Assembly: GCA_965277925.1 (NCBI GenBank)
Contig: OZ255850.1
Coordinates: 2,855,030 to 2,919,029 of the forward strand
DNA: 64,000 nucleotides
Source: Granulicella sp.
GTDB lineage: Bacteria; Acidobacteriota; Terriglobia; Terriglobales; Acidobacteriaceae
Direction of reading: 5' to 3'
Shown here one piece after another: positions 17,032 through 33,754 of the stretch (position 1 is its first letter; every line of letters starts with the position of its first letter). Position numbers and translations under genes: made by a program. Under the pieces are notes generated by a model. It was not told the DNA's origin. It did not search any database and saw nothing but the letters and a program-made list of their open reading frames with translations.

Positions 17032-17777
17032 GGGGATTAGGAAGCAAAAGGGCTCAGAGAGGGTCCTTTCTGAGGAAGTTAAGCAGGGCTTTGTAGAGGT
17101 TGTCGTTGCGGTAATTGAAGCGAAATTCTGTCTCTTTAAGGTGGAGGTAGAAAGTGCGTTTGGGCACGCCGCAGAACCTAGCGAGGCGCCGTTTGGCTAG
17201 GCTCCAGAAGCTCTCGATGCCGTTGATGTGATTGAGCTGCTGAGCGAAGACATTCTCTCGGTGCTCGACCCTGAGGTGCTTGTTGTAGCCCAGATCGACC
17301 AGGCCGTGATAGCCTGCCCAGCCGTCAGTATGGATCACCGAGCTAAGGCTGGCTCGGCCACCAATCACAGCCTGCAGCGCGGCTTTGGAAGCATCAGGGA
17401 CGATCGCGGTGTAGACCTTGTCGGCGCGCTTGAGCAGGCCGAAGACGATGGTCTTGCCGCCGGCGCCGCGGCCGCACCTTCCGCGCACGCGCTGTGGGCC
17501 GAAGTAGGATTCATCCGCTTCGAGCACGCCCTCGAACGGCGACTGCCGCTCGCACTCGGCGGCGATCCTGGTGCGCAGGCGCAGGAAGATCGCGTTCACC
17601 GAACGAACCGAAACGCCAGTCAGGTGGGCGGTCTGCGTGGCCGTTAAATTCAGTGCAAAACACCTCACCAGATGACGAAACTTTGCCTCACTTAATTTGG
17701 AAAATCGAAAATAGCAGTTTGACTGCGCCATCACTGCACTTTAGCGCCGCTCCAACCTCGTTTGCTTCCTAAGCCCC
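17032..17777 (-). mobile_element. IS1595-family (IS1016-like) insertion sequence, 746 bp
   Basis: 17-bp TIRs GGGG(A/C)TTAGGAAGCAAA at 17032-17048 and 17761-17777; 7-bp target duplication TCTGCGT at 17025-17031 and 17778-17784. Confidence 0.92.
17054..17734 (-). CDS. IS1595-family DDE transposase
   Basis: EADESYFG, VIHTDGWAGY, HINGIESFWSLAKRRL, LHLKETEFRFN. Confidence 0.93.
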   Translation of the reverse strand: MMAQSNCYFRFSKLSEAKFRHLVRCFALNLTATQTAHLTGVSVRSVNAIFLRLRTRIAAECERQSPFEGVLEADESYFGPQRVRGRCGRGAGGKTIVFGLLKRADKVYTAIVPDASKAALQAVIGGRASLSSVIHTDGWAGYHGLVDLGYNKHLRVEHRENVFAQQLNHINGIESFWSLAKRRLARFCGVPKRTFYLHLKETEFRFNYRNDNLYKALLNFLRKDPL

Positions 17778-19802: not shown

Positions 19803-21311
19803 TCACAGCCCGGCAGCACGAATCGCACCCTGTAGCCCGTGCAGCAGAAGTTGCGGAGCGCAGCCCAGCAGCACGACCGCGGCGGCCAGCAGTACGGCGA
19901 CGATCTGCGTGAGGACCGGTATGCGGATGTTTGGGGCGTCGGCTGGGGGGTTCGCAACGTAAACGCGCTTGAGCACCTGCAGGTAATAGAAGAGCGAAAC
20001 GGCGCTCATCGCGATGGCGAGAACGATAAGCCAAAGCAAGCCGTGAGAGCTCGGTGTCGCGTCCAAGGCGGAGACAAACAGATAAAACTTTCCGAAGAAG
20101 CCGGCCAGCGGCGGAATGCCCGCCAGCGAGAGCAGGAAGATGAACAGGCAAGCGGAGAGGACGGGCGCACGGCGGCTGAGGCCGTCGAAGCTGGCGAACT
20201 CGTCGCTGCCACTCTGCTTTTCTACCGTGCCGATAACGGCGAAGGCGCCCAGCGTTGCGAGCGAGTAAGTGATGACGTAGTAGAGCATCGCCGCCAGACT
20301 TTGCTGCGTGTGGGCCACAATCGCGATCAGCATATAACCCGCATGCGCGATGGCCGAATAGGCGAGCAGCCTCCGCACCCTGCTCTGAATGATCGCGACG
20401 AGATTTCCCAGCACCATCGAGAGCGCGGCGATGATGGCGATCACAGCGGTCCAGCCGGTGGCGAAGTGCATCCATGCCGCGCTGCCTTCCGAGCCCGCAA
20501 AGCCCAGCGCCATGACCTGGAAGAAGAGGAAGAAGCTCGCGACCTTCGAGCTGGACGCGATGAAGGCAGCGGCCGGGATGGGCGCGGCCTGGTAGACGTC
20601 GGGCGCCCAGAAGTGGAAGGGGGCGGCTGCGACCTTGAAGCCGAAGCCAATCGCCGTGGTCACGACGGCGATGACCAGCAGCGGGTTCAGGAACGACCCG
20701 TGAGCCGCGCGGATGGCGGCCGCGATCTGCGTAAGGTTCGTTGAGTTCGAGAGGCCATACAGCAGGCTGAAGCCGAAGAGCAGAAAGGCCGCCGACATGC
20801 CCCCGAAGAGGAAATACTTGAGAGCTGCCTCTGCGGACTGCGGGCTGCGTTTGTCGAAGGCAGTGAGGACGTAGAGCGAGAGGCTCAGCAGCTCCAGCGA
20901 CATGAAGATGACCAGGATGTCCTGCGCGGCCACCAGAAAAAGCATGCCGGTGGTGGCAAGCAGGATCAGCAGAACGAACTCGCCGATGTGCTCGGTGAAG
21001 GTGGTGTCTACCGAGAGCAGGAGCGTAAGGACCGTGAGGGCGAGTAAAGCGATCTGCACGAATTGCGTGAGCGGGTTCGCGACAAACATTCCCGCGAGGT
21101 TGGCTGCGGCAGGAGCAAGTAGCAAGCGGAGGATCGAGCCCGCGCAGCCGAATGAGGCGAGAGTCGCGGCCACACCGAAGCGAAGTCGCGTTCCGCGATT
21201 GCGCAAAAGCAGGAGATCCGTCGCCAGCACCACCAGCGCCGTGACGACGAGGATGACCTCCGGCAGGAGAAGCTGCAGCAGATGCGTATAGGGCGTCGGA
21301 TTCATCGCCAA
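19803..21311 (-). CDS. nuoN: NADH-quinone oxidoreductase subunit N
   Basis: FMSLELLSL, EAALKYFLFG, GFKVAAAPFHFWAPDVYQ, RLLAYSAIAHAGY, GFFGKF. Confidence 0.95.
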   Translation of the reverse strand: MAMNPTPYTHLLQLLLPEVILVVTALVVLATDLLLLRNRGTRLRFGVAATLASFGCAGSILRLLLAPAAANLAGMFVANPLTQFVQIALLALTVLTLLLSVDTTFTEHIGEFVLLILLATTGMLFLVAAQDILVIFMSLELLSLSLYVLTAFDKRSPQSAEAALKYFLFGGMSAAFLLFGFSLLYGLSNSTNLTQIAAAIRAAHGSFLNPLLVIAVVTTAIGFGFKVAAAPFHFWAPDVYQAAPIPAAAFIASSSKVASFFLFFQVMALGFAGSEGSAAWMHFATGWTAVIAIIAALSMVLGNLVAIIQSRVRRLLAYSAIAHAGYMLIAIVAHTQQSLAAMLYYVITYSLATLGAFAVIGTVEKQSGSDEFASFDGLSRRAPVLSACLFIFLLSLAGIPPLAGFFGKFYLFVSALDATPSSHGLLWLIVLAIAMSAVSLFYYLQVLKRVYVANPPADAPNIRIPVLTQIVAVLLAAAVVLLGCAPQLLLHGLQGAIRAAGL

Positions 21312-22813
21312 CCGCCTTGGCGCAGACCCGCGAATAGCGGAGAGTTCAACGCCGGTGTAATCACTTGCAGGAGCATCTGCGGATAGAGACCGATGGCGAC
21401 GCTGGTGGCGATCAGAATGATTGCGCCGAGGCGCTCGGGAAGGGTTATGGCCGGCAGCGGAGCATGAGACTGCGCAGATACGGTGTTCGGCTCCGCGAAG
21501 AAGGCCTTTTGCATCGCGCGCCAGATATAAACGACGCCCATCAGAATGCCGAACCCGAGGCCCACCGCAAACGCGGGGAACGCGCGCCAGGCACCCACCA
21601 GAATCATCAACTCCGCAACGAAGCCACTGAAACCGGGCAGCCCCATGCTTGCCATTCCGGCGAGCACGAACATGACCGCCGCGAAAGGTATGGCCTTGCT
21701 CAGGTTCATCGGCCCGAGAGCCGCGAGTTCGCGTGTATGGGCACGGTTATAAACCATGCGGCCGACCACGGCGAAGAGCAGGCCGGCGAGAATGCCGTGC
21801 GAGAACATCTGCACGACGGCGCCAGTCAGGCCAATCTGATTCAGCGTCATCAGCCCCAGCAGGATGAAGCCCATGTGGCTGATGCTGGAGTAGCCGATGA
21901 CGAACTTGAAGTCCTTCTGCACTAACGCTACTAAAGCTCCATAGATCACGCCGATCACGGCTAGCAGCGAGAACACATCGCGCCAGGAGCCGAGACCTAT
22001 GACGTGAAAGCCCCACGGCCCGAGGCCGAGTGGGAAGAGAGTCATGGCCACGCGCAGGCAGCCATACGCGCCGAGCTTCATAACCACCCCTGCGAGCAGC
22101 ATCGAAGCGGCCGTGGGCGCGGCTACATGGCCGGTCGGAGCCCAGGTGTGGAACGGCCACAGGCCCGCGAGAATCGCGAAGCCGAAAAAGACCAGCGGGA
22201 ACGCCCACATCTGGAAGTGCAACGGGAAAGGATATCCAGCCAGCGCATCCAGCGACATCGACTTCGCACCTGCGACGACGTAGGCGGCGACAAGACCGAT
22301 GAGCACCATCGCGGAGCCGATGAAGGAGTACAGCGCTAGTTTCATCGCGCCGTACTCGCGCCGCGTGGAGCCCCAGATCGCGATCAGGAAATATTTGGGA
22401 ATAATGACGATCTCGTAGAACACGAACAGGAGAAAGAGATCGTAGCTGAGGAACACGCCGTAAACCGCGCCGATGAGCAGCAGATAAAACGCAAAGAATT
22501 CATTGGTACGCTGCTCGATGTTCCAGGAAAAAAGGATGCCGGTGATGGCGACAATTCCGGTGAGCAGAACCAGACAGAGGCTGATGCCGTCGGCGGCAAG
22601 GTGATAGTCGATTCCGAACGACGGAATCCATGCCACGTGCGTGATGGTCTGGAGCGCGCCCGTCCTGTGTTCCACGAAGGTCGTGAGCGCGATCGCGAAT
22701 CCGGCGATGGCTGCCAGCAGCGCCAAGATGCGCGCGGCTGCGAGGCGGCCTTTCGGCAGCAGCAGGAGAGCGGCGGCTCCTAGAAACGAGATGTAGATCG
22801 TCCACGCGAGCAT
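21302..22813 (-). CDS. nuoM: Complex I subunit M, second (distal) copy
   Basis: DGIS, FYEIVIIPKYFLIAIWG, PFHTWAP, MKLGAYG, YSSISHMG, QMFSHG, GLPGFSGFVAE. Confidence 0.93.
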   Translation of the reverse strand: MLAWTIYISFLGAAALLLLPKGRLAAARILALLAAIAGFAIALTTFVEHRTGALQTITHVAWIPSFGIDYHLAADGISLCLVLLTGIVAITGILFSWNIEQRTNEFFAFYLLLIGAVYGVFLSYDLFLLFVFYEIVIIPKYFLIAIWGSTRREYGAMKLALYSFIGSAMVLIGLVAAYVVAGAKSMSLDALAGYPFPLHFQMWAFPLVFFGFAILAGLWPFHTWAPTGHVAAPTAASMLLAGVVMKLGAYGCLRVAMTLFPLGLGPWGFHVIGLGSWRDVFSLLAVIGVIYGALVALVQKDFKFVIGYSSISHMGFILLGLMTLNQIGLTGAVVQMFSHGILAGLLFAVVGRMVYNRAHTRELAALGPMNLSKAIPFAAVMFVLAGMASMGLPGFSGFVAELMILVGAWRAFPAFAVGLGFGILMGVVYIWRAMQKAFFAEPNTVSAQSHAPLPAITLPERLGAIILIATSVAIGLYPQMLLQVITPALNSPLFAGLRQGGWR

Positions 22814-22840
22814 ACTTAGAACACTACGTTCATTCTTCGA

Positions 22841-24397
22841 TCAAAACTTCAGTTGTTGCACCATCTGCATCACGGTGCCGTTGACGACGCCCAGCACAAG
22901 TTGCGGGTAAATGCCTAAAGCAAACATGAGCGCGATGACGGGGGCGAGAGCCAGCCGCTCGCCGTTTGTGAGATCGGGGAGGGCGGTCCACCGCTCGTTC
23001 AAAGGTCCGGAAAAGACACGCTGAATAACTCCGAGAATGACGATCGCTGTCACCAGCAAGCCGATGACCGAGAGCGCCGTCGCCCATGTCACGAGCGGAA
23101 ACGAGCCCTTGAAGATAAGGAACTCACCGACAAAACCATTGAGACCGGGAAGGCCGAGCGAAGAGAAGAGCGCGATACCCATCAGACCGGCGAAGACCGG
23201 AGCAACCCGGCGCAGGCCGCCAAAGTCGTTCAGCCCGCGCAGGCCGCCGCTGCGGGCTTCGAGCATGGCGATGAACCAGAAGATGGCCGCGGCAGTGAGG
23301 CCGTGATTGAACACCTGCAGCAGGACGCCGTTCATCGCGGCGAATTTTTGTGTCAGCAGCGACGCGTCACCACCAGTAAACTTGGCGACCGCGAAGATCG
23401 CCAGCAGGCAATAGCCGAGATGGTTGATGGACGAGTACGCGAAGATACGCTTCAGGTCTTTTTGCGCCAGCGCGGAGTAGGCCGAGAGCACGATGGTCGC
23501 CACGGCCAGCCAAAGCAGCGGCGTCAGCACGGCTTGCATCTGCGGATAAAAAATTGGCAGCAGGATGCGAAGGAAGCCATAGAGGCCCATCTTCGACATC
23601 GCTCCGGTGAGCAGAATCGTTGTGCCGGTTGGGGCTTCCGAGTAGGCCGCAGGCAGCCACGTGTGAAACGGAATCAGCGGCACCTTGACAGCAAAACCCA
23701 GGAACGCTCCCGCGAAGACCAGCAGTGCGACATGTTGCGGCACGAAGCGATGCCAGCCGAGATTGGCGACGACCGCAGGCATCAGATGCCCACTTTGCGC
23801 CAGTTGCGCGAGCTCGATGAAGTCGAACTTCCCCGTCGCAAGATAGATGGCGAGAAACGCCAGCAGCATCGCGACGCCGCCAGCCATCGTGTACACCAGA
23901 AACTGCGTGGCGGCGGGCGTACGTCGCGGGCCGCCCCACAGCTTGATGAGAAAGAATGCCGGGATCAGACTGAGTTCCCAGAATGTGAACCAGTGCACGA
24001 AGTTCAACGCCGTGAAGGTCCCGAACAAGCAGGTCTGCAATAGCAGCATCAGCGCGAAGTACAGCGGCACGCGCTCTTCGATCTTCCACGACGCGGCCAT
24101 GCCGATCGGAACGACGATGGCGGAGAGCAGCAGCATCAGCAGCCCAAGCCCGTCAATGCCGACGCGATACTCGATGTTGAGCGCAGGAATCCAGACGTGG
24201 CGTTCTTGAAACTGCAGCACGCCGGAGGCGGGATCGAAGCGGTGCCAGAGCACCAGCACCAGCAGCAGCGCGGCGGCGCTGAAGGCGATCGCCAGCCAGC
24301 GGGTTACGTTCGTGCGCCGGCTGCCGACGGCGAGCAGCACGAGCGCTCCCGCGACCGGCAATGCCGTAAGGACCGTCAGCCACGGAAACGTACTCAT
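22841..24397 (-). CDS. nuoM: Complex I subunit M, first copy
   Basis: ATG overlaps the nuoL stop; GIDGL, FWELSLIP, FAVKVPLIPFHTWLP, SKMGLYG, AYSSINHLG, GLPGLNGFVGE. Confidence 0.95.
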   Translation of the reverse strand: MSTFPWLTVLTALPVAGALVLLAVGSRRTNVTRWLAIAFSAAALLLVLVLWHRFDPASGVLQFQERHVWIPALNIEYRVGIDGLGLLMLLLSAIVVPIGMAASWKIEERVPLYFALMLLLQTCLFGTFTALNFVHWFTFWELSLIPAFFLIKLWGGPRRTPAATQFLVYTMAGGVAMLLAFLAIYLATGKFDFIELAQLAQSGHLMPAVVANLGWHRFVPQHVALLVFAGAFLGFAVKVPLIPFHTWLPAAYSEAPTGTTILLTGAMSKMGLYGFLRILLPIFYPQMQAVLTPLLWLAVATIVLSAYSALAQKDLKRIFAYSSINHLGYCLLAIFAVAKFTGGDASLLTQKFAAMNGVLLQVFNHGLTAAAIFWFIAMLEARSGGLRGLNDFGGLRRVAPVFAGLMGIALFSSLGLPGLNGFVGEFLIFKGSFPLVTWATALSVIGLLVTAIVILGVIQRVFSGPLNERWTALPDLTNGERLALAPVIALMFALGIYPQLVLGVVNGTVMQMVQQLKF

Positions 24398-26550
24398 GCT
24401 TTGGCCCTCCACAGCATGAGAATCGCGAGCACGATGAGGCCAAGGGCGATCATCTGCAGATAACCCTGGACGCGGCCGCCTTGCAGCAGCGAGAGGACCT
24501 TGCCGCCACGCGATACGGTCTCGCAGCCCTCGTCGAAACCGGCGTTCACCACATGGGTGTCGAAGAAGTTGTCGAGCCCCGCCAGGCCCAGCACGAGATA
24601 CGAGAAGGTCTGCACGACGCCATTCCATACCCAACGGTCGAGCCACGCGCAGAGGCGCGCCAATAACGCATTCAACCGAAGGATAGTAGCGCCATACAAG
24701 CGATCGATGAAGAACGCGTGCTCAAGAACCCGGAAGGAATGTGGCTGTATCTGTTCCAGCGCGTCGGGAGCTTCGGCGCTCTCGATCGGCTTGCGGCCAT
24801 AGAGCCACCAGCCCAGCCCGAGTCCCACAAAGACGAGGCACGACGAGGCGATCATCAGCGCATAGACGCCGGAGAACGCCGCGAGGTTGAAGGTCGCATG
24901 CTCGCCGCCGAGGAAAGATTGCAGCCACGGCCAGGAGGGCGCGCCGAGCAGCCCGAGGAACAAGGTAAACGCCGCGAGGATCATCAGCGGTATGGTCATG
25001 ACCGCAGGGCTCTCATGCGGCATGCAATGTGGGTCGGGGGCGTGTGCAGTGTGAGCGGAGGTTTCGCTCCGAACCGCGGCACGCGACTGTCCGGCGAACA
25101 TATAGCAGACCTGCCGGGTCATGTAGAACGCGGTGAGCAGCGCACCGATCGCGCCGAAATAAAACGGCGTGCGCGAGACACTCCACGCAAACGCCGCATG
25201 CAGAATCTCGTCCTTGCTCCAGAAGCCGGAGAAGAACAGTGGAAAGCCGCAGAGTGCAAGCATCCCGGCTGCATACGTGGCGAAGGTGATCGGCATAAAG
25301 CGGCGCAGGCCGCCCATGCGGCGGATGTCCTGCTCGCCCGAGCAGCCATGAATGACCGAGCCCGCGCCTAGGAACAGCAGTGACTTGAAGAACGCGTGGG
25401 TGATGAGATGAAACATGCCCACGGCCACGCCGCCCACGCCGAGGCCCATCATCATGTAACCGAGTTGCGAGACAGTAGAGTACGCGAGGATGCGCTTGAT
25501 GTCATACTGCGCGACCGCAATGAGTGCACCGAAGAGCGCGGTGATCGCGCCGATCCAGGTGACAACTTGCAGCGCAACGGTGGGTGTAAGCGCGTGGACC
25601 GATGCAGCGCGAAGCGTGGCCATGGGCGCACTCAGAAGAGGCGCATGAGCACTCATGATCGGCGCGTGCGCGCTCATGATCGGAAAAATTCGCGCAATGA
25701 GAAATACGCCCGCGGCGACCATCGTCGCCGCATGGATCAGCGCGCTCACCGGAGTCGGGCCTTCCATTGCGTCGGGCAGCCAGACGTGCAGCGGAACCTG
25801 TCCAGACTTGCCCGCCGCTCCGCAGAAGATCAACAGCCCGATTCCGGTGGAGACCGTCAGGCCGAAGATGGTCGTATGGGTGACGAAAGCGGTCAGCGCG
25901 GTGTGCTCGAGACAGCCCACGCCGTTGTCGTAGAACAGCAGCGTATTGGTCTGCGCGTAGAGCCACGCCATACCGAGAAAGAAGCCAAGATCGCCGATGC
26001 GCGTGACGATAAAAGCCTTTTTGGCCGCCGCCGCTGCGCTAGGTTTGGCATACCAGAAGCCGATGAGCAGATAGGACGTGAGACCCACCACCTCCCAGCA
26101 CATGAACAGCAGCAGCAGGCTGTTGGAGACGACGACGCCCAGCATCGCGCCGGCGAAGAGCGCGAGGAAGCAAAAGAAGCGCGTGAAGTTTTCGTCCTCC
26201 GCCATGTAGCCGACGCTGTAGATGAAGATCAGCAGGCTGACGAAGGTGACCATCAACAGCATCACGGCGGTGAGCGGGTCGAGGATCCAGCCGAGCCGGA
26301 GCCATTGAGTGCCGAACTGCAGCCAGTTGAAGTTGAAGACCTGCCCGACATCCGCGCCGTGGCCAAGCAGAAGCACGTGCGCAAAGGCGCAAACCGATAG
26401 AACGAAAGAAACCGCCATGGAGCCGATAGCGAGCGAAGCGGCCAGTGCGCGGCGCCGCTGCTTCGCCACCGCGATGATTCCTCCGGCGAGGATTGGCAGC
26501 GCGGGCACAAGCCAAAGATTTCGAACGATCCAATCCATCGGGGCGGCCAT
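24394..26550 (-). CDS. nuoL: Complex I subunit L with an extended lateral helix (718 aa)
   Basis: WEVVGLTSYLLIGFW, GKSGQVPLHVWLPDAMEGPTPVSALIHAATMV, HAFFKSLLFLGAG, WSKDEIL. Confidence 0.97.
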   Translation of the reverse strand: MAAPMDWIVRNLWLVPALPILAGGIIAVAKQRRRALAASLAIGSMAVSFVLSVCAFAHVLLLGHGADVGQVFNFNWLQFGTQWLRLGWILDPLTAVMLLMVTFVSLLIFIYSVGYMAEDENFTRFFCFLALFAGAMLGVVVSNSLLLLFMCWEVVGLTSYLLIGFWYAKPSAAAAAKKAFIVTRIGDLGFFLGMAWLYAQTNTLLFYDNGVGCLEHTALTAFVTHTTIFGLTVSTGIGLLIFCGAAGKSGQVPLHVWLPDAMEGPTPVSALIHAATMVAAGVFLIARIFPIMSAHAPIMSAHAPLLSAPMATLRAASVHALTPTVALQVVTWIGAITALFGALIAVAQYDIKRILAYSTVSQLGYMMMGLGVGGVAVGMFHLITHAFFKSLLFLGAGSVIHGCSGEQDIRRMGGLRRFMPITFATYAAGMLALCGFPLFFSGFWSKDEILHAAFAWSVSRTPFYFGAIGALLTAFYMTRQVCYMFAGQSRAAVRSETSAHTAHAPDPHCMPHESPAVMTIPLMILAAFTLFLGLLGAPSWPWLQSFLGGEHATFNLAAFSGVYALMIASSCLVFVGLGLGWWLYGRKPIESAEAPDALEQIQPHSFRVLEHAFFIDRLYGATILRLNALLARLCAWLDRWVWNGVVQTFSYLVLGLAGLDNFFDTHVVNAGFDEGCETVSRGGKVLSLLQGGRVQGYLQMIALGLIVLAILMLWRAKA

Positions 26551-26565
26551 CGGGTCCTTAATCGT

Positions 26566-26886
26566 TCAGCCTTTCATCGAGTTCATCTGGTCCAGGTCCG
26601 TTGTCTTGGAATGGCGGTAAACGGCGAGGATAATGCCCAGACCGACGGCGGCCTCCGCAGCGGCAACGCTGATGGAAAAAATCGTGAACATGATCCCAGT
26701 CAATGCAGCGGGATCGGGCCCATAACGCCAAAACGCGATCAGGTTGAGATTGGCGGCATTGAGCATCAGTTCAATGCCGATCAACACGAGAATGGCATTG
26801 CGCCGCACCAGCGCGCCAGCGAGGCCGATGCAGAAGAGAAACGCGGAAACGAGCAGATAGCCGTTCAATGCGTTCGCAGCGCTCAT
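26566..26886 (-). CDS. nuoK: Complex I subunit K
   Basis: LIGIELMLNAANLN, AAAEAAVGLGI. Confidence 0.96.
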   Translation of the reverse strand: MSAANALNGYLLVSAFLFCIGLAGALVRRNAILVLIGIELMLNAANLNLIAFWRYGPDPAALTGIMFTIFSISVAAAEAAVGLGIILAVYRHSKTTDLDQMNSMKG

Positions 26887-27407
26887 GGCGTCTCCCTTTT
26901 TTTGGGCATCACGTCGGGCATGGCAAGGATGACCGCGCCAATCAGCGCAGCGGTAAGGAGCAGACCCATGATCTCGAGCGGCAGAACGAACTGGTGCATC
27001 AGCGCGTTGCCGATCTGAGCCACCGAGACCTCGGGCCGCAGAGGAGAAACCTGTGTCGTCGCGCCCCTAGAACAGATCGCATACGCGAGAACCCCAAACA
27101 GCGCAGCAGCGACGAAGCAGCCCATGACCCATGAGGCGGAGAGGACTGGCTGCGCGCGCCCGCTCGGATGCGGTTCCGCGCTGCGTGTCATCATGATGGC
27201 GAAGACCGCGAGGATCGCTACGGCACCGACGTAGACCAGAATCTGCGTGAAGCCGACAAACTGCGCGCTCAGTTCAAGAAAAAGAGAGGCCAGCCCGACC
27301 AGCCCAAGCGTCAGCGCAAGGATGCAGTGAATCGGATTGCGCAGCGCCATCGCGGCCGCTGTTCCGGCAATCGTGAGCGCGGCCAGAATGAGGAAGAGAA
27401 CGGTCAT
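26883..27407 (-). CDS. nuoJ: Complex I subunit J
   Basis: QILVYVGAVAILAVFAIMM, FVLPLEIMGLLLTAALIGAVILA. Confidence 0.95.
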   Translation of the reverse strand: MTVLFLILAALTIAGTAAAMALRNPIHCILALTLGLVGLASLFLELSAQFVGFTQILVYVGAVAILAVFAIMMTRSAEPHPSGRAQPVLSASWVMGCFVAAALFGVLAYAICSRGATTQVSPLRPEVSVAQIGNALMHQFVLPLEIMGLLLTAALIGAVILAMPDVMPKKRETP

Positions 27408-27439
27408 CGCGAACTTCTATAGCCCTTCCCGGAAGATAG

Positions 27440-28630
27440 TTATTCGGCGAAACGATACGTCCGGACCTGAAGCTTCTTGCCCTGCTTCAGGCCGCGGCTG
27501 AGCAGGACGCACGGTGCGACGAGCACCGCGGAGCAAATGACCCAGCGCACGATACCCGCCGGCAGAAAATGCCACAGACCGGCGGTAAAGATGTTCAGCA
27601 GCGTCATCGGCAGCATGAACTTCCATGCCAGACCCATCAGCTGGTCCATGCGCAGACGCGGAAACGTTCCACGCACCCAGATGAAGCAGCCGATAATAAC
27701 CAGCAGTTTAATGAAGAACCATATATACGAAGGTATCCACGTCAGGAAAGAAAACGGCGCGGCCCAGCCGCCGAGAAACAGCGTGATCGCAAGCCCGCTG
27801 GTCGCGAACATGCCCAGATATTCGCCCAGGAAGAAGAGCGCAAACTTGAAGCCGGAGTATTCAATGTAGTAGCCGGCGATAATCTCCGACTCCCCTTCCG
27901 GCAAATCGAACGGCGAGCGATTGGATTCCGCCGTAGCGGCGATCATGAAGAGCACAAACCCGGTGAATCCCCACGGCGTAAACACGAACCAGTGCGGCCA
28001 GATCCACGTATAGCCGGCCTGCGCATTCACGATTTCGACCATCGAGAGCGAGCCCGCCGCCATAATCACGACGATCGACGCGAGTACCAGCGGAACTTCG
28101 TAGCTGATCATCTGCGCGACCGCTCGCATGGCGCCCAGCAGCGAGTACTTGCTGCGGCTCGACCAGCCCGCCATGAATACAGCGAGCTCGACCACCGAGC
28201 CGACAGCGAAGAAGAACAGCACGCCTGCGTTCAGGTTCGCGATCACCATGTTTCGGCCGATGGGCAGCACCGCATACGCCATAAAGGCCGCCAGCACCAG
28301 CAGCAGCGGCGCCATGTAATGCACAGCCTGGTCGGCGCTGCGCGGGACCACATCTTCCTTGGTGAGCGACTTGATGCCGTCTGCGATCGGCTGCCCGAAG
28401 CCATAGGGGCCGACCCGATTCGGCCCGTAGCGGTTTTGAATGCGACCGAGACCCTTGCGCTCCAGCACCGTCGTGATCGCGAACAGCAACGGGAACACAA
28501 TCAGCACGGGAACTACGGACAGAATCGCCGAGACGATCGGCTGAGCCGCGCCCGGCACATAGCCAAGCAGCCAGTGCTTCGTGATCACGAATATCTGATC
28601 GATCGTCTGGGATGTCGTGGCGGGCGTCAT
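27440..28630 (-). CDS. nuoH: Complex I subunit H
   Basis: ERKGLGRIQNRYGPNR, ADGIKSLTKE, AESNRSPFDLPEGESE, PRLRMDQLM. Confidence 0.97.
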   Translation of the reverse strand: MTPATTSQTIDQIFVITKHWLLGYVPGAAQPIVSAILSVVPVLIVFPLLFAITTVLERKGLGRIQNRYGPNRVGPYGFGQPIADGIKSLTKEDVVPRSADQAVHYMAPLLLVLAAFMAYAVLPIGRNMVIANLNAGVLFFFAVGSVVELAVFMAGWSSRSKYSLLGAMRAVAQMISYEVPLVLASIVVIMAAGSLSMVEIVNAQAGYTWIWPHWFVFTPWGFTGFVLFMIAATAESNRSPFDLPEGESEIIAGYYIEYSGFKFALFFLGEYLGMFATSGLAITLFLGGWAAPFSFLTWIPSYIWFFIKLLVIIGCFIWVRGTFPRLRMDQLMGLAWKFMLPMTLLNIFTAGLWHFLPAGIVRWVICSAVLVAPCVLLSRGLKQGKKLQVRTYRFAE

Positions 28631-29238
28631 CTTTCGGGCACGAGCTCCCTTGCTTCTTTTGCGGGAGTCGAAGGCGCGGCGGCGGATGCGGCGGGTGCAG
28701 CCTTGGGTGCCCCCGCCTTAGCTCGAGCCGCCGCCAATTCCGCATCTACGGCAGCGGCCTCCGTCGGGTGGATCTCGTGGTAGTACTCGTTGGACTTCGC
28801 CAGCCTATGCTTGTTCCACAGCAGCTCGTTGAACCGGCTGGTGCTGCTCTGCTCGAAGTCCACGTCCATTTTGATCGCGTCGAACGGGCACACCTCGACG
28901 CAAATCTGACAGCTCATGCAAACGGATACATCGATGTTGAATCTGGCAGGGTAAAACTGCGGTTTGCCGACAGCGTCAGGCTTCTTGTCTGTGCTCTTCT
29001 CGATGAAGATGCACTTGGGCGGGCACTCTTTTTCGCAAATCAGGCAGGAGACGCAGCGTAGGCCCTCCTGCGGGTTTATCCCGTCATACACCAGGAACGG
29101 AAAGTTGCGCGAGGCCTCGATGCGCGGCGCTCGCTCTTCCGGGAACTGCACCGTGGTCAGCCGGTCCTTGCTGACATAGCTGCCCACAAAATTTCGAGCC
29201 GTCTCCGCCAAGCCCTTCAGAATCCCAGCACCAAACAT
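28627..29238 (-). CDS. nuoI: Complex I subunit I (2x[4Fe-4S])
   Basis: CVSCLICEKECP and CMSCQICVEVCP; lies upstream of nuoH. Confidence 0.93.
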   Translation of the reverse strand: MFGAGILKGLAETARNFVGSYVSKDRLTTVQFPEERAPRIEASRNFPFLVYDGINPQEGLRCVSCLICEKECPPKCIFIEKSTDKKPDAVGKPQFYPARFNIDVSVCMSCQICVEVCPFDAIKMDVDFEQSSTSRFNELLWNKHRLAKSNEYYHEIHPTEAAAVDAELAAARAKAGAPKAAPAASAAAPSTPAKEARELVPER

Positions 29239-29310
29239 CGATCTCTCTTCCCCACGGTGAAAAATCGCTTCCACACAGTCAATTTCACTGTAACGCATTT
29301 TGCGCTTGGC

Positions 29311-30510
29311 CTACCGGTCGACCTCGCCCATGACGATGTCGATACTCCCCAGAATGATCACAACGTCGGCCACGTTCTGGCCCAGGCACATGTCCTCAAG
29401 AACGGTCAGGTTAATCAAACTGGGCGGCCGCACCCGATAGCGATACGGGTTCGGCGATCCATCGCTGATGAGGTAAAAGCCGAGCTCGCCCTTGGGCGCC
29501 TCGATGCGTCCGTAAGCCTCGCCCGGCTTGGGCCGAAAGTTGCGCACCTTGGTCTTGGGGTCGGTGAACGGCCCCTCGGGAAGGTCGCGCATCGCCTGCT
29601 GCAAAATCTTCACCGACTCGCGCATCTCCAGCAGCCGGATCATGTAGCGGTCGTAGACGTCGCCGTGGTCGCCGAGCGGAATACGGAAACTGAAGCGATC
29701 ATAGATGCCGTACTTGTCCACCTTGCGCAGGTCGTAATCCACACCACAGGCCCGCAGCATCGGCCCGGTAATGCCCGCGTTGATCGCCAGCTCTTTCGAC
29801 AGCACGCCCACGCCCTGCGTCCGCGCCATCAGGATTTCGTTGCTGGTCAGCAGGCTTTCAAACTCATCCAGAAAGCGCGGGAATGCATCGACAACCTGCT
29901 GGGCCTGCGCGAGCCAGCCCGCGGGCAGGTCGACGCGGCAGCCGCCGAAGCGCATGTAATTGCACATCATCCGCGCGCCGGTGAGCGACTCGAACAGATC
30001 GAGAATTTTTTCGCGCTCGCGGAAGGCGTACATCAGCGGCGTACCGCTGGCGCCCATGTCCTGCATCAGAAAACCAACGAGGCTGGCGTGGTTCTGCAGC
30101 CGCGTCAACTCGCCCGTGATGACGCGCAGATACTCGGCGCGCTCCGGAACCTGAATGCCCGCCAGCTTCTCGACCGCCAGCGCATACGCCCAGTTATTGG
30201 TGATCGAGCAGAAATAATCCAGCCGGTCCGTGTAAGGCATTGACCCCAGATAGGTTTCATCTTCGGCGATCTTTTCGTGATTGCGGTGCAGATAGCCGAA
30301 GATCGGCTTGAGCTTCACCACGCGCTCGCCATCCAGCGCCACATCCATCCGAAACACGCCGTGCGTCGACGGATGCTGCGGGCCCATGGAGACTTCGAGC
30401 AACTGCGTTGTGCTATCCACCTTTGGAATGCGTGAGATGCGTCCGGATGGTGACGTCGCGGGCGCGGTGGTTTCCAGCTCAAAATCCGGCGATTCTTCTG
30501 TGGTCATCAT
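29311..30510 (-). CDS. nuoD: Complex I subunit D
   Basis: [46 protein letters not shown]. Confidence 0.97.
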
Positions 30511-31148
30511 GTGGTTTTATCGTGGTGCTGTATGGTTTTTGCGAGCACCTCGTCGTGCGCGGTCGGCTCATATTCATAGTCGTCCGGCTCGACGTAATCC
30601 CGGCGCATTGGGTAGTCCACGAACCCCTCCCACATCAGCAGGCGGCGCAGGTCGGGGTGACCATCGAAGACGATGCCGTAGAGGTCGAAGATCTCGCGCT
30701 CCTGAAAATCGGCGCTGCGCCACAGCGGCGTCAGCGACGGCAGATGAACGCGCGCAGCGCGGTCCTCGGTGCGCATGCGCAGAATGACGGGCCCATGTTT
30801 CTTGCTCATGGAGTAGAGATGGTAAACGGTTTCAAGATAGCCGCCCGTCACAGACTTGCGAACTTCGTCCACTTCCTTCTCGACCGGCACACCATCGGGC
30901 CCGTCGATCAACTTCTTGACCTTTACCTTTTCGGAGACGTCCTTCAGCGGCCAGTCGATGCCCGTCACGTTCGAGCAGTAGTCGAAGCGGAGATGCGGAG
31001 CGGCGCGCAGAAACTGCGCCACCGCGAATCCGTGTTCCGGGTCCATCAGCAGCGAGTGCTGGCCTGAAGGGCTGGGATTGGCGACCATCTCCAGGCGGCA
31101 GCCGGGGACGTTCGCTTCGATCTCGGCCTTAAGCGGCTCCAGTGTCAT
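30507..31148 (-). CDS. nuoC: Complex I subunit C
   Basis: [47 protein letters not shown]. Confidence 0.95.
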
Positions 31149-31791
31149 CCGTGCCTGCCAGCGTGATATTGACTAACGGATCGTCGCCCAACGGGGGGTG
31201 CCATATTGCGGGGTTCTGCGGCGGCTCCAGATCGTGCGCGCCAAACTTCGGCACCAGGAACTCGCTTGGCTCGGCGGCGTTCAAGTGGCGCGGCCGTTCG
31301 CTTCCGGTGAGCTGCTGCTCGTCGATCTTCTTCTGCAGCGCCATGAAGCCGTCGATCAGCGCCTCGGGCCGCGGAGGACAGCCGGGAATATAGATGTCCA
31401 CAGGAATGTAGCGGTCGATACCCTTGAGCACGTTATAGCCCTGCTTGAATGGGCCGCCGGAGATGGCGCAAGCGCCCATCGAGATCACGTATTTCGGCTC
31501 CGGCATCTGATTATAAAGCCGCACCACCTGCGGCGCCATCTTTTTGGTAATTGTTCCGGCGACGATCATCAGATCGGCCTGCCGTGGCGATGGCCGGAAG
31601 ACCTCCGCGCCGAACCTGGCAAGGTCATAGCGCGCCATGGTCGTGGCAATCATCTCGATCGCACAGCACGCCAGCCCGAAGTTCAGCGGCCACAGCGAAC
31701 TCCTGCGGCCCCAGTTATAGAGCTCTTGCAGGCTCGTAGCGACGATCCCCTGCTTGCTCAGCTCGGCCTTCAGCGCTTCATCCATTCCCAA
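31129..31791 (-). CDS. nuoB: Complex I subunit B
   Basis: [34 protein letters not shown]. Confidence 0.97.
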
Positions 31792-31862
31792 AAAGCCCTT
31801 AGCCTCAGCCTAACACTTCTCTGCAGGCGGCTGACTCGAGTGCCCCGTATCCTGTTGCAGTA

Positions 31863-32234
31863 TCAGGTCCAGGTCAGCACGTTCTTTTGGTACGCCCAAA
31901 CCAGCCCTTCGATCAGCAGCAGCAGAAAAACCAGCATGGCCAAGCATTCGCCTATGCCGAAGCCGCTGAACGACACCGCGAACGGCAGCAGAAATACGGC
32001 CTCCACATCGAAGACCAGAAAGATGATGGCATACAGGTAGTAACCCGGCTTGAACTGGATCCAGGCGTCGCCCGTTGTCTCCAGGCCGCACTCATAGACC
32101 GCATTCTTGTCGCGGCCGGGCTTCGCGGGCGAGTACTTCTTCGCCCACAGCCACGCCAGCGCCAGCGGCGCAACGGCGAACCCAGCCGCGCCCAGCAGCA
32201 GAACGAGAATCGGCAGATACGGACTGTTTCCCAT
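31863..32234 (-). CDS. nuoA: Complex I subunit A
   Basis: YECG, YYLYAIIFLVFDVEAVFLLP; ATG at 32234 preferred. Confidence 0.96.
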   Translation of the reverse strand: MGNSPYLPILVLLLGAAGFAVAPLALAWLWAKKYSPAKPGRDKNAVYECGLETTGDAWIQFKPGYYLYAIIFLVFDVEAVFLLPFAVSFSGFGIGECLAMLVFLLLLIEGLVWAYQKNVLTWT

Positions 32235-32353: not shown

Positions 32354-33754
32354 ATGCAGACGAGCTACAACGGAATCCCTGTCCCCGCCAATGGCCAGCC
32401 CATCGAGTACAAGGACGGCAAGTACACAGTGCCCGACCACCCGATCATCCCCTTCATCGAGGGCGATGGCACAGGTCGCGACATCTGGCGCGCCTCGCAG
32501 CGGGTCTTCGACGCGGCGGTCGAAAAGGCCTACGACGGCAAGCGCTCTGTCGCATGGTATGAGGTCCTCGCCGGCGAAAAGTCCTACCGCAAATCGCAGG
32601 AGTGGCTGCCCGAGGACACCGTCAAGGCGACGGTCGACTTCCGCGTCTCCATCAAAGGCCCGCTGACCACGCCCGTAGGCGGCGGCATCCGCTCGCTCAA
32701 CGTCGCGCTGCGCCAGTTGATGGACCTCTACCAGTGCATCCGGCCGGTGAAGTATTACGCCGGCGTGCCCAGCCCGGTCAAGCACCCCGAACTCGTCGAC
32801 ATCGTCATCTTCCGGGAGAACACCGAGGACATCTACGCGGGCATCGAGTTCCGCGAAGGCACACCCGAGGCCGCGAAGTTCATCGCTTTCGTCAACGACG
32901 AGATGCTCAAGGGCACCAAGAAAAAGGTCCGCCTCGACTCCGGCGTCGGCGTCAAACCGATCTCGATCACCGGCTCCAAGCGGCTGGTGCGCGCGGCCAT
33001 CGCCTTCGCGCTGAAGGAAGGCCGCAAGACCGTAACGCTGGTGCATAAGGGCAACATCCAGAAGTTCACCGAGGGCGCCTTTCGCGAGTGGGGCTACGAG
33101 GTCGCTACCCAGGAATTCCGCGCCGACACCGTCACCGAGCGCGAGAGCTGGATCCTCGGCAACGTGGAGGCGAACCCTGGAATCACGCCTGAAGAAAACG
33201 CCGCGCTGATCGAGCCAGGCATCGAGTTTGCCGCCAAGGAGTTCGGCGAGAGCGTCGTACAGGAAGTGAAGGACGTCATCGCCAGCATCGGCCAGTCGCA
33301 CGGTGCGGGCAAATGGAAGCAGAAGATCCTCATCAACGACCGCATCGCCGATTCCATCTTCCAACAGATCATCATTCGCCCGTCGGACTACAGCGTGCTG
33401 GCGACAACCAACCTCAACGGCGACTACATATCGGACGCCGCAGCGGCGCAGGTCGGCGGCCTCGGCATCGCTCCGGGCGGCAATATCGGAGACGGCTTCG
33501 CGGTCTTCGAAGCCACGCACGGGACTGCTCCCAAATATGCGGACAAGGACGTCATCAATCCCGGCTCCGTCATGCTCTCCGGCGTGATGCTGTTCGACTT
33601 CATCGGCTGGAGCGAAGCCGCTCGGCTGATCGAGTCGTCGATGGAAAAGACCATCCAGCAGAAGTTCGTCACCTACGACTTCGAGCGTCAGATGCAGGGC
33701 GCGACCAAAGCGAAGACCAGCGAATTCGCCACTCGCATGATCGAAAATATGTGA
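32354..33754 (+). CDS. icd: Isocitrate dehydrogenase (NADP, homodimeric type)
   Basis: [65 protein letters not shown]. Confidence 0.97.

Follow-up and report, generated by a model that had tools for sequence, protein, structure and literature searches.

A twelve-gene complex I operon with two nuoM copies and no NADH-input genes, probably encoding an accessory enzyme, in a Granulicella genome

Results

A compact nuo operon with two NuoM subunits

We analysed a 64,000-nt window of the complete, single-contig 4.98-Mb genome of Granulicella sp. (Acidobacteriaceae). Its minus strand carries, at positions 19803–32234, twelve contiguous genes for subunits of complex I in the order nuoA-B-C-D-I-H-J-K-L-Ma-Mb-N, where Ma and Mb are two copies of nuoM. 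The cluster very probably encodes an accessory, second complex I of the 2M class, reportedly defined by Chadwick et al. in 2018 (ISME J 12:2668), and would belong to a clade of that class found in Chloroflexus, Verrucomicrobiota and Acidobacteriaceae. Membership of the class follows from the two nuoM genes in one cluster, an insertion in the lateral helix (HL) of NuoL and the full set of core subunits.

Genes were called from a listing of open reading frames (ORFs) together with Pfam and NCBIfam profile searches, and start codons were then refined (Table 1). After this refinement the cluster runs from the nuoN stop at 19803 to the nuoA ATG at 32234, the latter being read directly, while the nuoMa frame, listed as a 601-aa ORF, truly begins at 24397 (518 aa), nuoI at 29238 and nuoN at 21305. 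Intergenic distances range from -20 to +72 nt. Five junctions have 4-nt ATGA-type start/stop overlaps, including those of nuoMa with nuoL and of nuoN with nuoMb; nuoC shares 20 nt with nuoB and 4 nt with nuoD, and none of the twelve frames contains an internal stop. This close spacing, together with the overlaps and the open frames, indicates one translationally coupled operon. NuoB carries a C-terminal extension of ~55 aa, and NuoI scores 68 bits with TIGR01971, under the cut-off of 113.

The original prediction had described twelve contiguous nuo genes, two divergent NuoM paralogues, nuoI ahead of nuoH and no genes for the NADH-input subunits, and all of this was borne out. Pfam and NCBIfam assignments fall at exactly these limits, both NuoM copies score above the TIGR01972 cut-off while being ~32% identical to each other, and nuoI precedes nuoH on the coding strand. 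No nuoE, nuoF or nuoG was found within the operon or its flanks, where the neighbours are an isocitrate dehydrogenase gene, ORFs of unknown function and a transposase gene.

Table 1 Features of the two-NuoM operon and its immediate surroundings (positions in the window).
Feature	Length	Position	Strand	Support and remarks
NADP-isocitrate dehydrogenase gene, divergent upstream neighbour (context only)		32354..33754	+	NF005610 655.7 bits (cut-off 585)
nuoA	123 aa	31863..32234	-	PF00507 101 bits; relatives' product also 123 aa
nuoB	220 aa	31129..31791	-	PF01058; NF011394 359.7 bits (cut-off 312)
nuoC	213 aa	30507..31148	-	PF00329 119 bits
nuoD	399 aa	29311..30510	-	PF00346 322 bits; NF004739 447 bits (cut-off 360)
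nuoI-type 2x[4Fe-4S] subunit gene	203 aa	28627..29238	-	Fer4 families; called product P0001
nuoH	396 aa	27440..28630	-	PF00146 376 bits; NF004741 333.9 bits (cut-off 305)
nuoJ	174 aa	26883..27407	-	PF00499 108.8 bits
nuoK	106 aa	26566..26886	-	PF00420 95.5 bits; NF004320 110 bits (cut-off 57)
nuoL, lengthened	718 aa	24394..26550	-	NF005141 602.9 bits (cut-off 556)
Insertion in lateral helix HL, NuoL residues 646-672	~27 residues	24535..24615	-	alignment
nuoMa, adjoins nuoL	518 aa	22841..24397	-	TIGR01972 450.6 bits (cut-off 263.8)
nuoMb, adjoins nuoN	503 aa	21302..22813	-	TIGR01972 421.6 bits (cut-off 263.8)
nuoN	500 aa	19803..21305	-	TIGR01770 386.3 bits (cut-off 332.6)
orf106, 99 nt downstream of nuoN	106 aa	19383..19703	-	conserved protein without family

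The lateral helix of NuoL is lengthened

The 718-aa NuoL was aligned with 11 NuoL sequences from other two-M operons and 7 from single-M operons. In all 12 of the two-M sequences an extra 26–27 residues lie in the amphipathic helix before the last transmembrane helix (TM), an insertion that is seen in none of the 7 single-M sequences, among them the canonical NuoL1 of the same genome. An AlphaFold2 (AF2) model of NuoL (30 sequences; mean predicted local distance difference test score (pLDDT) 80.9) places helices at residues 597–610, 615–667 and 673–689 and the terminal membrane helix (TM16) at 694–717. Twenty-six helical residues add ~39 Å, which is roughly the width of one antiporter-like subunit, and a lengthened NuoL lateral helix has been reported as an adaptation of the 2M class (PMC9040806, PMC6606698).

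NuoL has a further insertion, in a loop at residues 292–327 (25570–25677, minus strand), which starts with a tandem MSAHAPI-MSAHAPL duplication and is specific to this genome. The loop is ~20 residues longer than in any aligned relative, and the pLDDT of the AF2 model is below 50 over residues 297–320. An origin from a dispersed repeat copied in frame was rejected, since no second copy exists in the genome, which points instead to local expansion with tandem duplication of MSAHAPI.

The operon is patchily distributed and shared between phyla

Relatives were collected in a NuoL scan of species-representative genomes, from which 80 loci were taken. NuoL identity was 58–73% in Acidobacteriaceae (Granulicella, Edaphobacter, Terracidiphilus), 47–63% in Verrucomicrobiota (Limisphaerales, Opitutae, Chthoniobacterales) and 39–44% in Chloroflexota. 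When the twelve proteins were mapped on the loci, the gene order recurred in ~45 loci of three phyla, being identical, nuoI before nuoH included, in Acidobacteriaceae, most Verrucomicrobiota and Chloroflexus. By this shared order the operon falls into the Chloroflexus-type 2M clade of Chadwick et al. 2018. There are two variants: A-B-C-D-I is divergent from H-J-K-L-M-M-N in Chthoniobacterales, and B, C, D and I are located elsewhere in Anaerolineae and Thermoflexus. The clade abounds in soil metagenomes, in which at least about 8000 NuoI homologues reached E <= 1e-30.

At a NuoI identity of at least 68%, the operon was present in 8 of 25 genomes of the same family, missing from one of two sampled congeners and not found in other families of the phylum sample. 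Among Verrucomicrobiota, 16 of 301 genomes carry it. Two operon-bearing bins (L026 and L032) are titled Akkermansia muciniphila and Klebsiella pneumoniae; their sequences fall among soil and freshwater Verrucomicrobiota, and the record labels are probably wrong.

A quick maximum-likelihood search (IQ-TREE) was run on 76 NuoM sequences, rooted only with NuoN. In the resulting tree Mb forms one orthologous clade that groups with single-copy NuoM (Shimodaira–Hasegawa-like approximate likelihood ratio test (SH-aLRT) 92), and Ma stands apart as orthologous groups at the unresolved base. The internal branching is the same for both copies, with Chloroflexus first, then Verrucomicrobiota, and Acidobacteriaceae nested beside Limisphaerales. 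Some verrucomicrobial NuoL sequences are closer to that of Granulicella than are other acidobacterial ones. The flanks are not shared: the 80 loci held no match to any of the 13 ORFs that flank the operon in the window, and clustering of flank ORFs across loci returned only oxidoreductase genes (described below) and lineage-local genes. Taken together, the nested tree position, the closer verrucomicrobial NuoL and the unshared flanks suggest that the operon was transferred as a whole, and it probably moved between Verrucomicrobiota and Acidobacteriaceae by this lateral route.

A canonical complex I is encoded elsewhere in the genome

The original prediction had raised a second, canonical nuo operon as something to look for. 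One was found, with nuoE, nuoF and nuoG, at C1:1113756–1131840 (1.114–1.132 Mb; locus L005). In it, nuoA-C-D is followed, across a 1.7-kb gap occupied by small unknown ORFs, by nuoE-F, then by a HicB-like gene and by nuoG-H-J-K-L-M-N. Its nuoB is unlinked, alone at C1:1415328–1415804 (1.415 Mb), as is its nuoI at C1:108858–109256 (0.109 Mb), whose product scores 123 bits with TIGR01971. The canonical genes are therefore fragmented, and an antitoxin-like gene (HicB) stands between nuoF and nuoG. The genome's one NuoE-family match, one NuoF-family match and NuoG gene all lie in the canonical cluster. Since a normal NADH-linked complex I is thus encoded elsewhere, the 2M enzyme would be a second, accessory complex I, a status that its patchy distribution also supports. 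A third match to the NuoB (Oxidored_q6) family, at C1:2382302–2382808 (minus strand) in a 357-aa frame, is probably a [NiFe]-hydrogenase small subunit.

Redox-site residues are retained and ferredoxin is a candidate donor

On inspection of the sequences, NuoB has the cysteines of cluster N2 (CCAIEM...GACA...GCPP motifs), NuoI has two CxxCxxCxxxCP motifs, and NuoD keeps the quinone-site residues, namely the histidines of PQHPSTHG and the tyrosine of ETY. The quinone (Q) module, formed by NuoB, C, D and I, is thus complete, with intact ligands for N2, N6a and N6b and intact quinone-site residues. The membrane arm is likewise complete, with A, H, J, K and the four antiporter-like subunits L, Ma, Mb and N, so that besides the two NuoM copies all core subunits (A, B, C, D, H, I, J, K, L, N) are present and intact. 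NuoI ends in a segment, LAKSNEYYHxIHPTEAAAVDAxLA, that is conserved in the clade, is followed by an Ala/Lys/Pro tail and is missing from the single-M NuoI sequences in the alignment. This C-terminal extension may occupy the site at which the NADH-input (N) module would otherwise bind.

In four acidobacterial loci, genes for 2-oxoacid:ferredoxin oxidoreductases lie directly upstream of nuoA. They are of two unrelated architectures, POR-gamma/alpha plus beta (L019, L021) and alpha plus beta/gamma (L037, L063), and the cluster at L037 adjoins a class-IV aminotransferase gene. The Granulicella genome has korGA-korB, for a gamma-alpha/beta enzyme, at 3.432–3.435 Mb. Its operon is separated by a 119-bp spacer from the divergent gene for isocitrate dehydrogenase, the enzyme of the step that makes 2-oxoglutarate, and the same icd/nuoA divergent pairing occurs in three relatives (L098, L101, L104). 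At the verrucomicrobial locus L103 (12753–14009), genes for a 77-aa ferredoxin (Fer4_13/15) and for a Methyltransf_28 protein lie just beyond nuoI; NDUFAF7, an assembly factor of mitochondrial complex I, belongs to the latter family.

Textbook midpoint potentials are -320 mV for NADH, about -74 mV for menaquinone (MK) and about -420 mV or lower for ferredoxin. By calculation, electron transfer from NADH to MK yields 47.5 kJ per 2 e-, which pays for at most ~3.3 H+ at 150 mV. Five H+ cost ~72 kJ, which calls for a donor potential of about -450 mV or below. The quinone of Granulicella and its family is MK-8 (PMC4148992). The gene neighbourhoods, the NuoI extension and these energetics together favour ferredoxin, and we give an about even chance to reduced ferredoxin from 2-oxoacid:ferredoxin oxidoreductases, such as the genome's KorAB, being the donor.

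Alternatively, the 2M membrane and Q modules might borrow NuoEFG from the canonical enzyme and act as another NADH:menaquinone oxidoreductase, differing in its H+/e- ratio and used at low proton-motive force. The only NuoE-family, NuoF-family and NuoG genes found, those of the canonical cluster, would be available for this, and a stand-alone nuoF has been proposed to serve the 2M enzyme of Nitrospira (PMC6606698). A NuoF-family gene was likewise present in all 25 other operon-bearing genomes that were checked (8 Acidobacteriaceae, 17 Verrucomicrobiota), so that in the genomes checked the 2M enzyme is never the sole complex I. This co-occurrence, however, may only reflect the near-universal presence of NuoF in these phyla. 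Moreover, NuoI and NuoD of the 2M operon are just ~31% and ~44% identical to the canonical copies, the clade-specific extension of NuoI would lie at the very site of the N-module, and with MK-8 the energy from NADH is, by the calculation above, too small for 5 H+ at normal proton-motive force. We therefore regard borrowing of NuoEFG as rather unlikely.

Both NuoM copies are under purifying selection

Ma and Mb are about as distant from each other as each is from the canonical NuoM of the genome. Ma keeps TM5 Glu, TM7 Lys, TM8 Lys and TM12 Glu. Mb, whose residues were placed by alignment to E. coli and Paracoccus NuoM, keeps TM5 Glu, TM8 Lys and TM12 Glu, has Leu in place of TM7 Lys (GFAILAGLWPFHTW versus FAVKMPVVPLHGW in E. 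coli, Lys234) and has gained a Lys in TM5 (IIPKYF; YEIVIIPKYFLI versus WEMMLVPMYFLI in E. coli). Both changes occur together in all Mb examined from Acidobacteriaceae and Verrucomicrobiota and in most Anaerolineae-type Mb; the Mb of Chloroflexus is without the TM5 Lys. A NuoM without the TM7 Lys (GFGILVSLWPFHSWAP) is also the sole NuoM in the verrucomicrobial nuo operons L080, L089, L090, L091 and L096, and the fetched stretches of L080, L089 and L091 hold nuoF and nuoG as well. Since this lysine is missing from the sole NuoM of operons bearing nuoF and nuoG, its loss characterises one lineage of NuoM and is no sign of decay.

Ratios of nonsynonymous to synonymous substitution rates (dN/dS) against three relatives were 0.09–0.13 for Ma, 0.07–0.11 for Mb, 0.13–0.15 for L and 0.14–0.17 for N, which are rough values, dS being saturated. 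They indicate purifying selection on Ma and Mb that is at least as strong as on L and N, and the lowest ratios among the antiporter-like subunits, with the same saturation of dS, are those of Mb.

These data bear on the possibility that one NuoM, most likely Mb, is no pump and acts as a structural spacer, or has another ion-conducting or gating role, so that the stoichiometry is not raised. Such a role could be read from the Leu at the position of the essential E. coli Lys234 and from the Lys three turns away in TM5. Three points speak against it. The paired substitutions are conserved in the Mb of Acidobacteriaceae and Verrucomicrobiota and in most sequences of the Anaerolineae type. The TM7 change is shared by the sole NuoM of certain verrucomicrobial operons that bear EFG, and this subunit must pump. 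Mb, lastly, combines its retained TM5 Glu, TM8 Lys and TM12 Glu with the lowest dN/dS. The conserved pair, the kept charges and the low dN/dS suggest that the lysine has changed its place and that the module is not dead, and a non-pumping NuoM thus seems to us quite improbable.

Comparison with known complex I types

The 2M class was described in 2018, as conveyed by papers that cite that description (PMC8004040, PMC6606698, PMC9040806, PMC7117926). Chloroflexus aggregans has a 12-gene two-M cluster (Cagg_1620–1631) beside a 14-gene set, both of which are transcribed in situ, and in Chloroflexus and Roseiflexus, as here, the second nuoM lies between nuoL and nuoN, nuoEFG are missing and a canonical 14-gene set is separate (PMC8004040). 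The Chloroflexus locus L087 has the identical order A-B-C-D-I-H-J-K-L-Ma-Mb-N, the HL insertion and orthologous Ma and Mb, and the Chloroflexus cluster is the nearest described relative of the Granulicella operon. The two differ in sequence (40–66% identity per subunit), in the NuoI tail, which is much longer and repetitive in Chloroflexus, and in their hosts, Chloroflexus being a phototroph whereas the Granulicella lineage consists of aerobic soil heterotrophs. The operon is a clean and well-preserved new example of an already described class, and not a new kind of system.

In the Nitrospira 2M enzyme (clade 3 of Chadwick et al.) NuoM is likewise doubled and NuoL lengthened, and a higher H+/e- ratio, a link to ferredoxin and operation in reverse have been proposed for it; it is said to have an independent origin (PMC6606698, PMC9040806). 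By description, nuoH, nuoE and nuoF are missing from its cluster and the nuoG homologue is enlarged, whereas that of Granulicella has nuoH and no nuoG. Anaerolineae-type 2M operons (A-H-J-K-L-M-M-N) share orthologous Ma and Mb and the HL insertion, and most of their Mb have the same TM7/TM5 changes; nuoBCDI is unlinked in them, according to the account of Chadwick et al. given in PMC7117926, whereas all twelve genes form one operon in Granulicella.

Cyanobacterial and chloroplast NDH-1 also has an eleven-subunit core without NuoEFG and is fed by ferredoxin at the NdhI face, and NdhF1 is the best solved-structure match of the Granulicella NuoL (6hum_F, E 7e-126). Photosynthetic NDH-1, however, has three antiporter-like subunits and no HL insertion, and depends on NdhS, V and O to bind ferredoxin; no counterpart of these was found in or next to the operon, the sole extra gene seen being orf106. 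A special kinship to photosynthetic NDH-1 was not upheld, as the NCBIfam scores of NuoL and NuoD favour Nuo over Ndh models. By analogy, the 2M enzyme would work like the ferredoxin-dependent photosynthetic NDH-1 without being a member of that group. The rhizobial 'green' complex I and Complex_I_3 of Ca. Manganitrophaceae likewise have more than three antiporter-like subunits (PMC9040806), but in these two MrpD-like subunits replace NuoL, whereas Granulicella keeps a genuine NuoL (Proton_antipo_N plus the C-terminal helix, NF005141). The canonical 14-subunit Nuo/NDH-1, finally, encodes NuoE, F and G together with the complex, in contrast to the 12-gene operon.

A possible thirteenth gene and the downstream flank

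Downstream of nuoN follow orf106, a 185-aa ORF without family match and the gene for an IS1595-family (ISXO2-like) transposase (17054–17734, minus strand), ~2 kb from the operon. The transposase gene would fit the differing surroundings in which relatives carry the operon. In Granulicella-like genomes orf106 follows nuoN in six separate neighbourhoods, beyond which the genes differ. Its homologues form 60 clusters, all named 'hypothetical', and the protein matched no Pfam or NCBIfam family. An AF2 model with a pLDDT of 93.9 has one helix and eight strands, for which the Protein Data Bank (PDB) gave no fold match (best Foldseek E 0.049, TM 0.36). Identification as an Fe-S or other known protein was rejected, given that its four cysteines are not invariant and that it has neither a family nor a structural neighbour. 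In the Granulicella-like subclade orf106 may encode a lineage-specific thirteenth subunit or an assembly factor.

Discussion

The original reading of this locus as a 2M-type complex I of a described class, lacking an NADH module of its own, agrees with the NuoL insertion, the conservation of both NuoM copies and the intact Q-site and Fe-S ligands. In the mechanism that we favour, a cytoplasmic low-potential donor would dock at the exposed NuoI/NuoCD face, and electrons would pass from N6a through N6b and N2 to menaquinone. The four antiporter-like modules and the E-channel would move ~5 H+ per 2 e-, and the cell would have an energy-conserving ferredoxin:menaquinone oxidoreductase beside its ordinary NADH enzyme.

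Taken as a whole, the proposal is that a ferredoxin:menaquinone oxidoreductase moving ~5 H+ per 2 e- lets aerobic soil Acidobacteriaceae and Verrucomicrobiota harvest the extra energy of ferredoxin, which oxygen-tolerant 2-oxoacid:ferredoxin oxidoreductases would reduce in the tricarboxylic acid (TCA) cycle or in amino-acid breakdown, that it has spread between the two phyla as a mobile unit of 12–13 genes, and that the clade-specific NuoI extension and, in the Granulicella-like subclade, orf106 dock the donor. We put this forward tentatively, as somewhat less likely than not, and several of our own observations weigh against it. The linkage to oxidoreductase genes is limited to 4 loci and to at most two independent events, and in Granulicella itself korAB lies ~545 kb from the operon, that is, unlinked. 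The use of menaquinone is taken from the chemotaxonomy of relatives, and NuoF accompanies the operon in every genome checked. The tree behind the proposed transfer comes from a quick search with NuoN as its only root, and it does not fix the direction of transfer. Finally, the TM7 lysine, an essential residue of E. coli NuoM, is missing from Mb, which might not pump like a normal module.

Reverse running, in which proton-motive force would drive menaquinol electrons up to ferredoxin with the extra pump module supplying the energy, appears very unlikely here: it is a role proposed for clade-3 2M enzymes, as in Nitrospira (PMC6606698, PMC9040806), and the neighbouring 2-oxoacid:ferredoxin oxidoreductases are reversible in principle, but cultured relatives are aerobic chemo-organoheterotrophs (PMC4148992) without known need for much reduced ferredoxin, and the neighbourhoods examined hold no reductive TCA cycle or nitrogenase context.

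In the literature searched we found no 2M complex I that had been purified, solved or assayed, and the PDB copy searched held no 2M-type L or M chain, the best matches being ordinary NdhF1, NuoL and NuoM. The extra proton and the donor are accordingly still hypotheses for the whole 2M class. Cultivable aerobic heterotrophs, Granulicella arctica for one, carry members of the clade described here too, and they are far easier to grow and to purify from than Nitrospira or uncultured Chloroflexota. The main value of the finding is a tractable aerobic model for a biochemically uncharacterised class of enzymes, for which the repeated adjacency of oxidoreductase genes to the operon provides a concrete and testable hypothesis of the electron donor.

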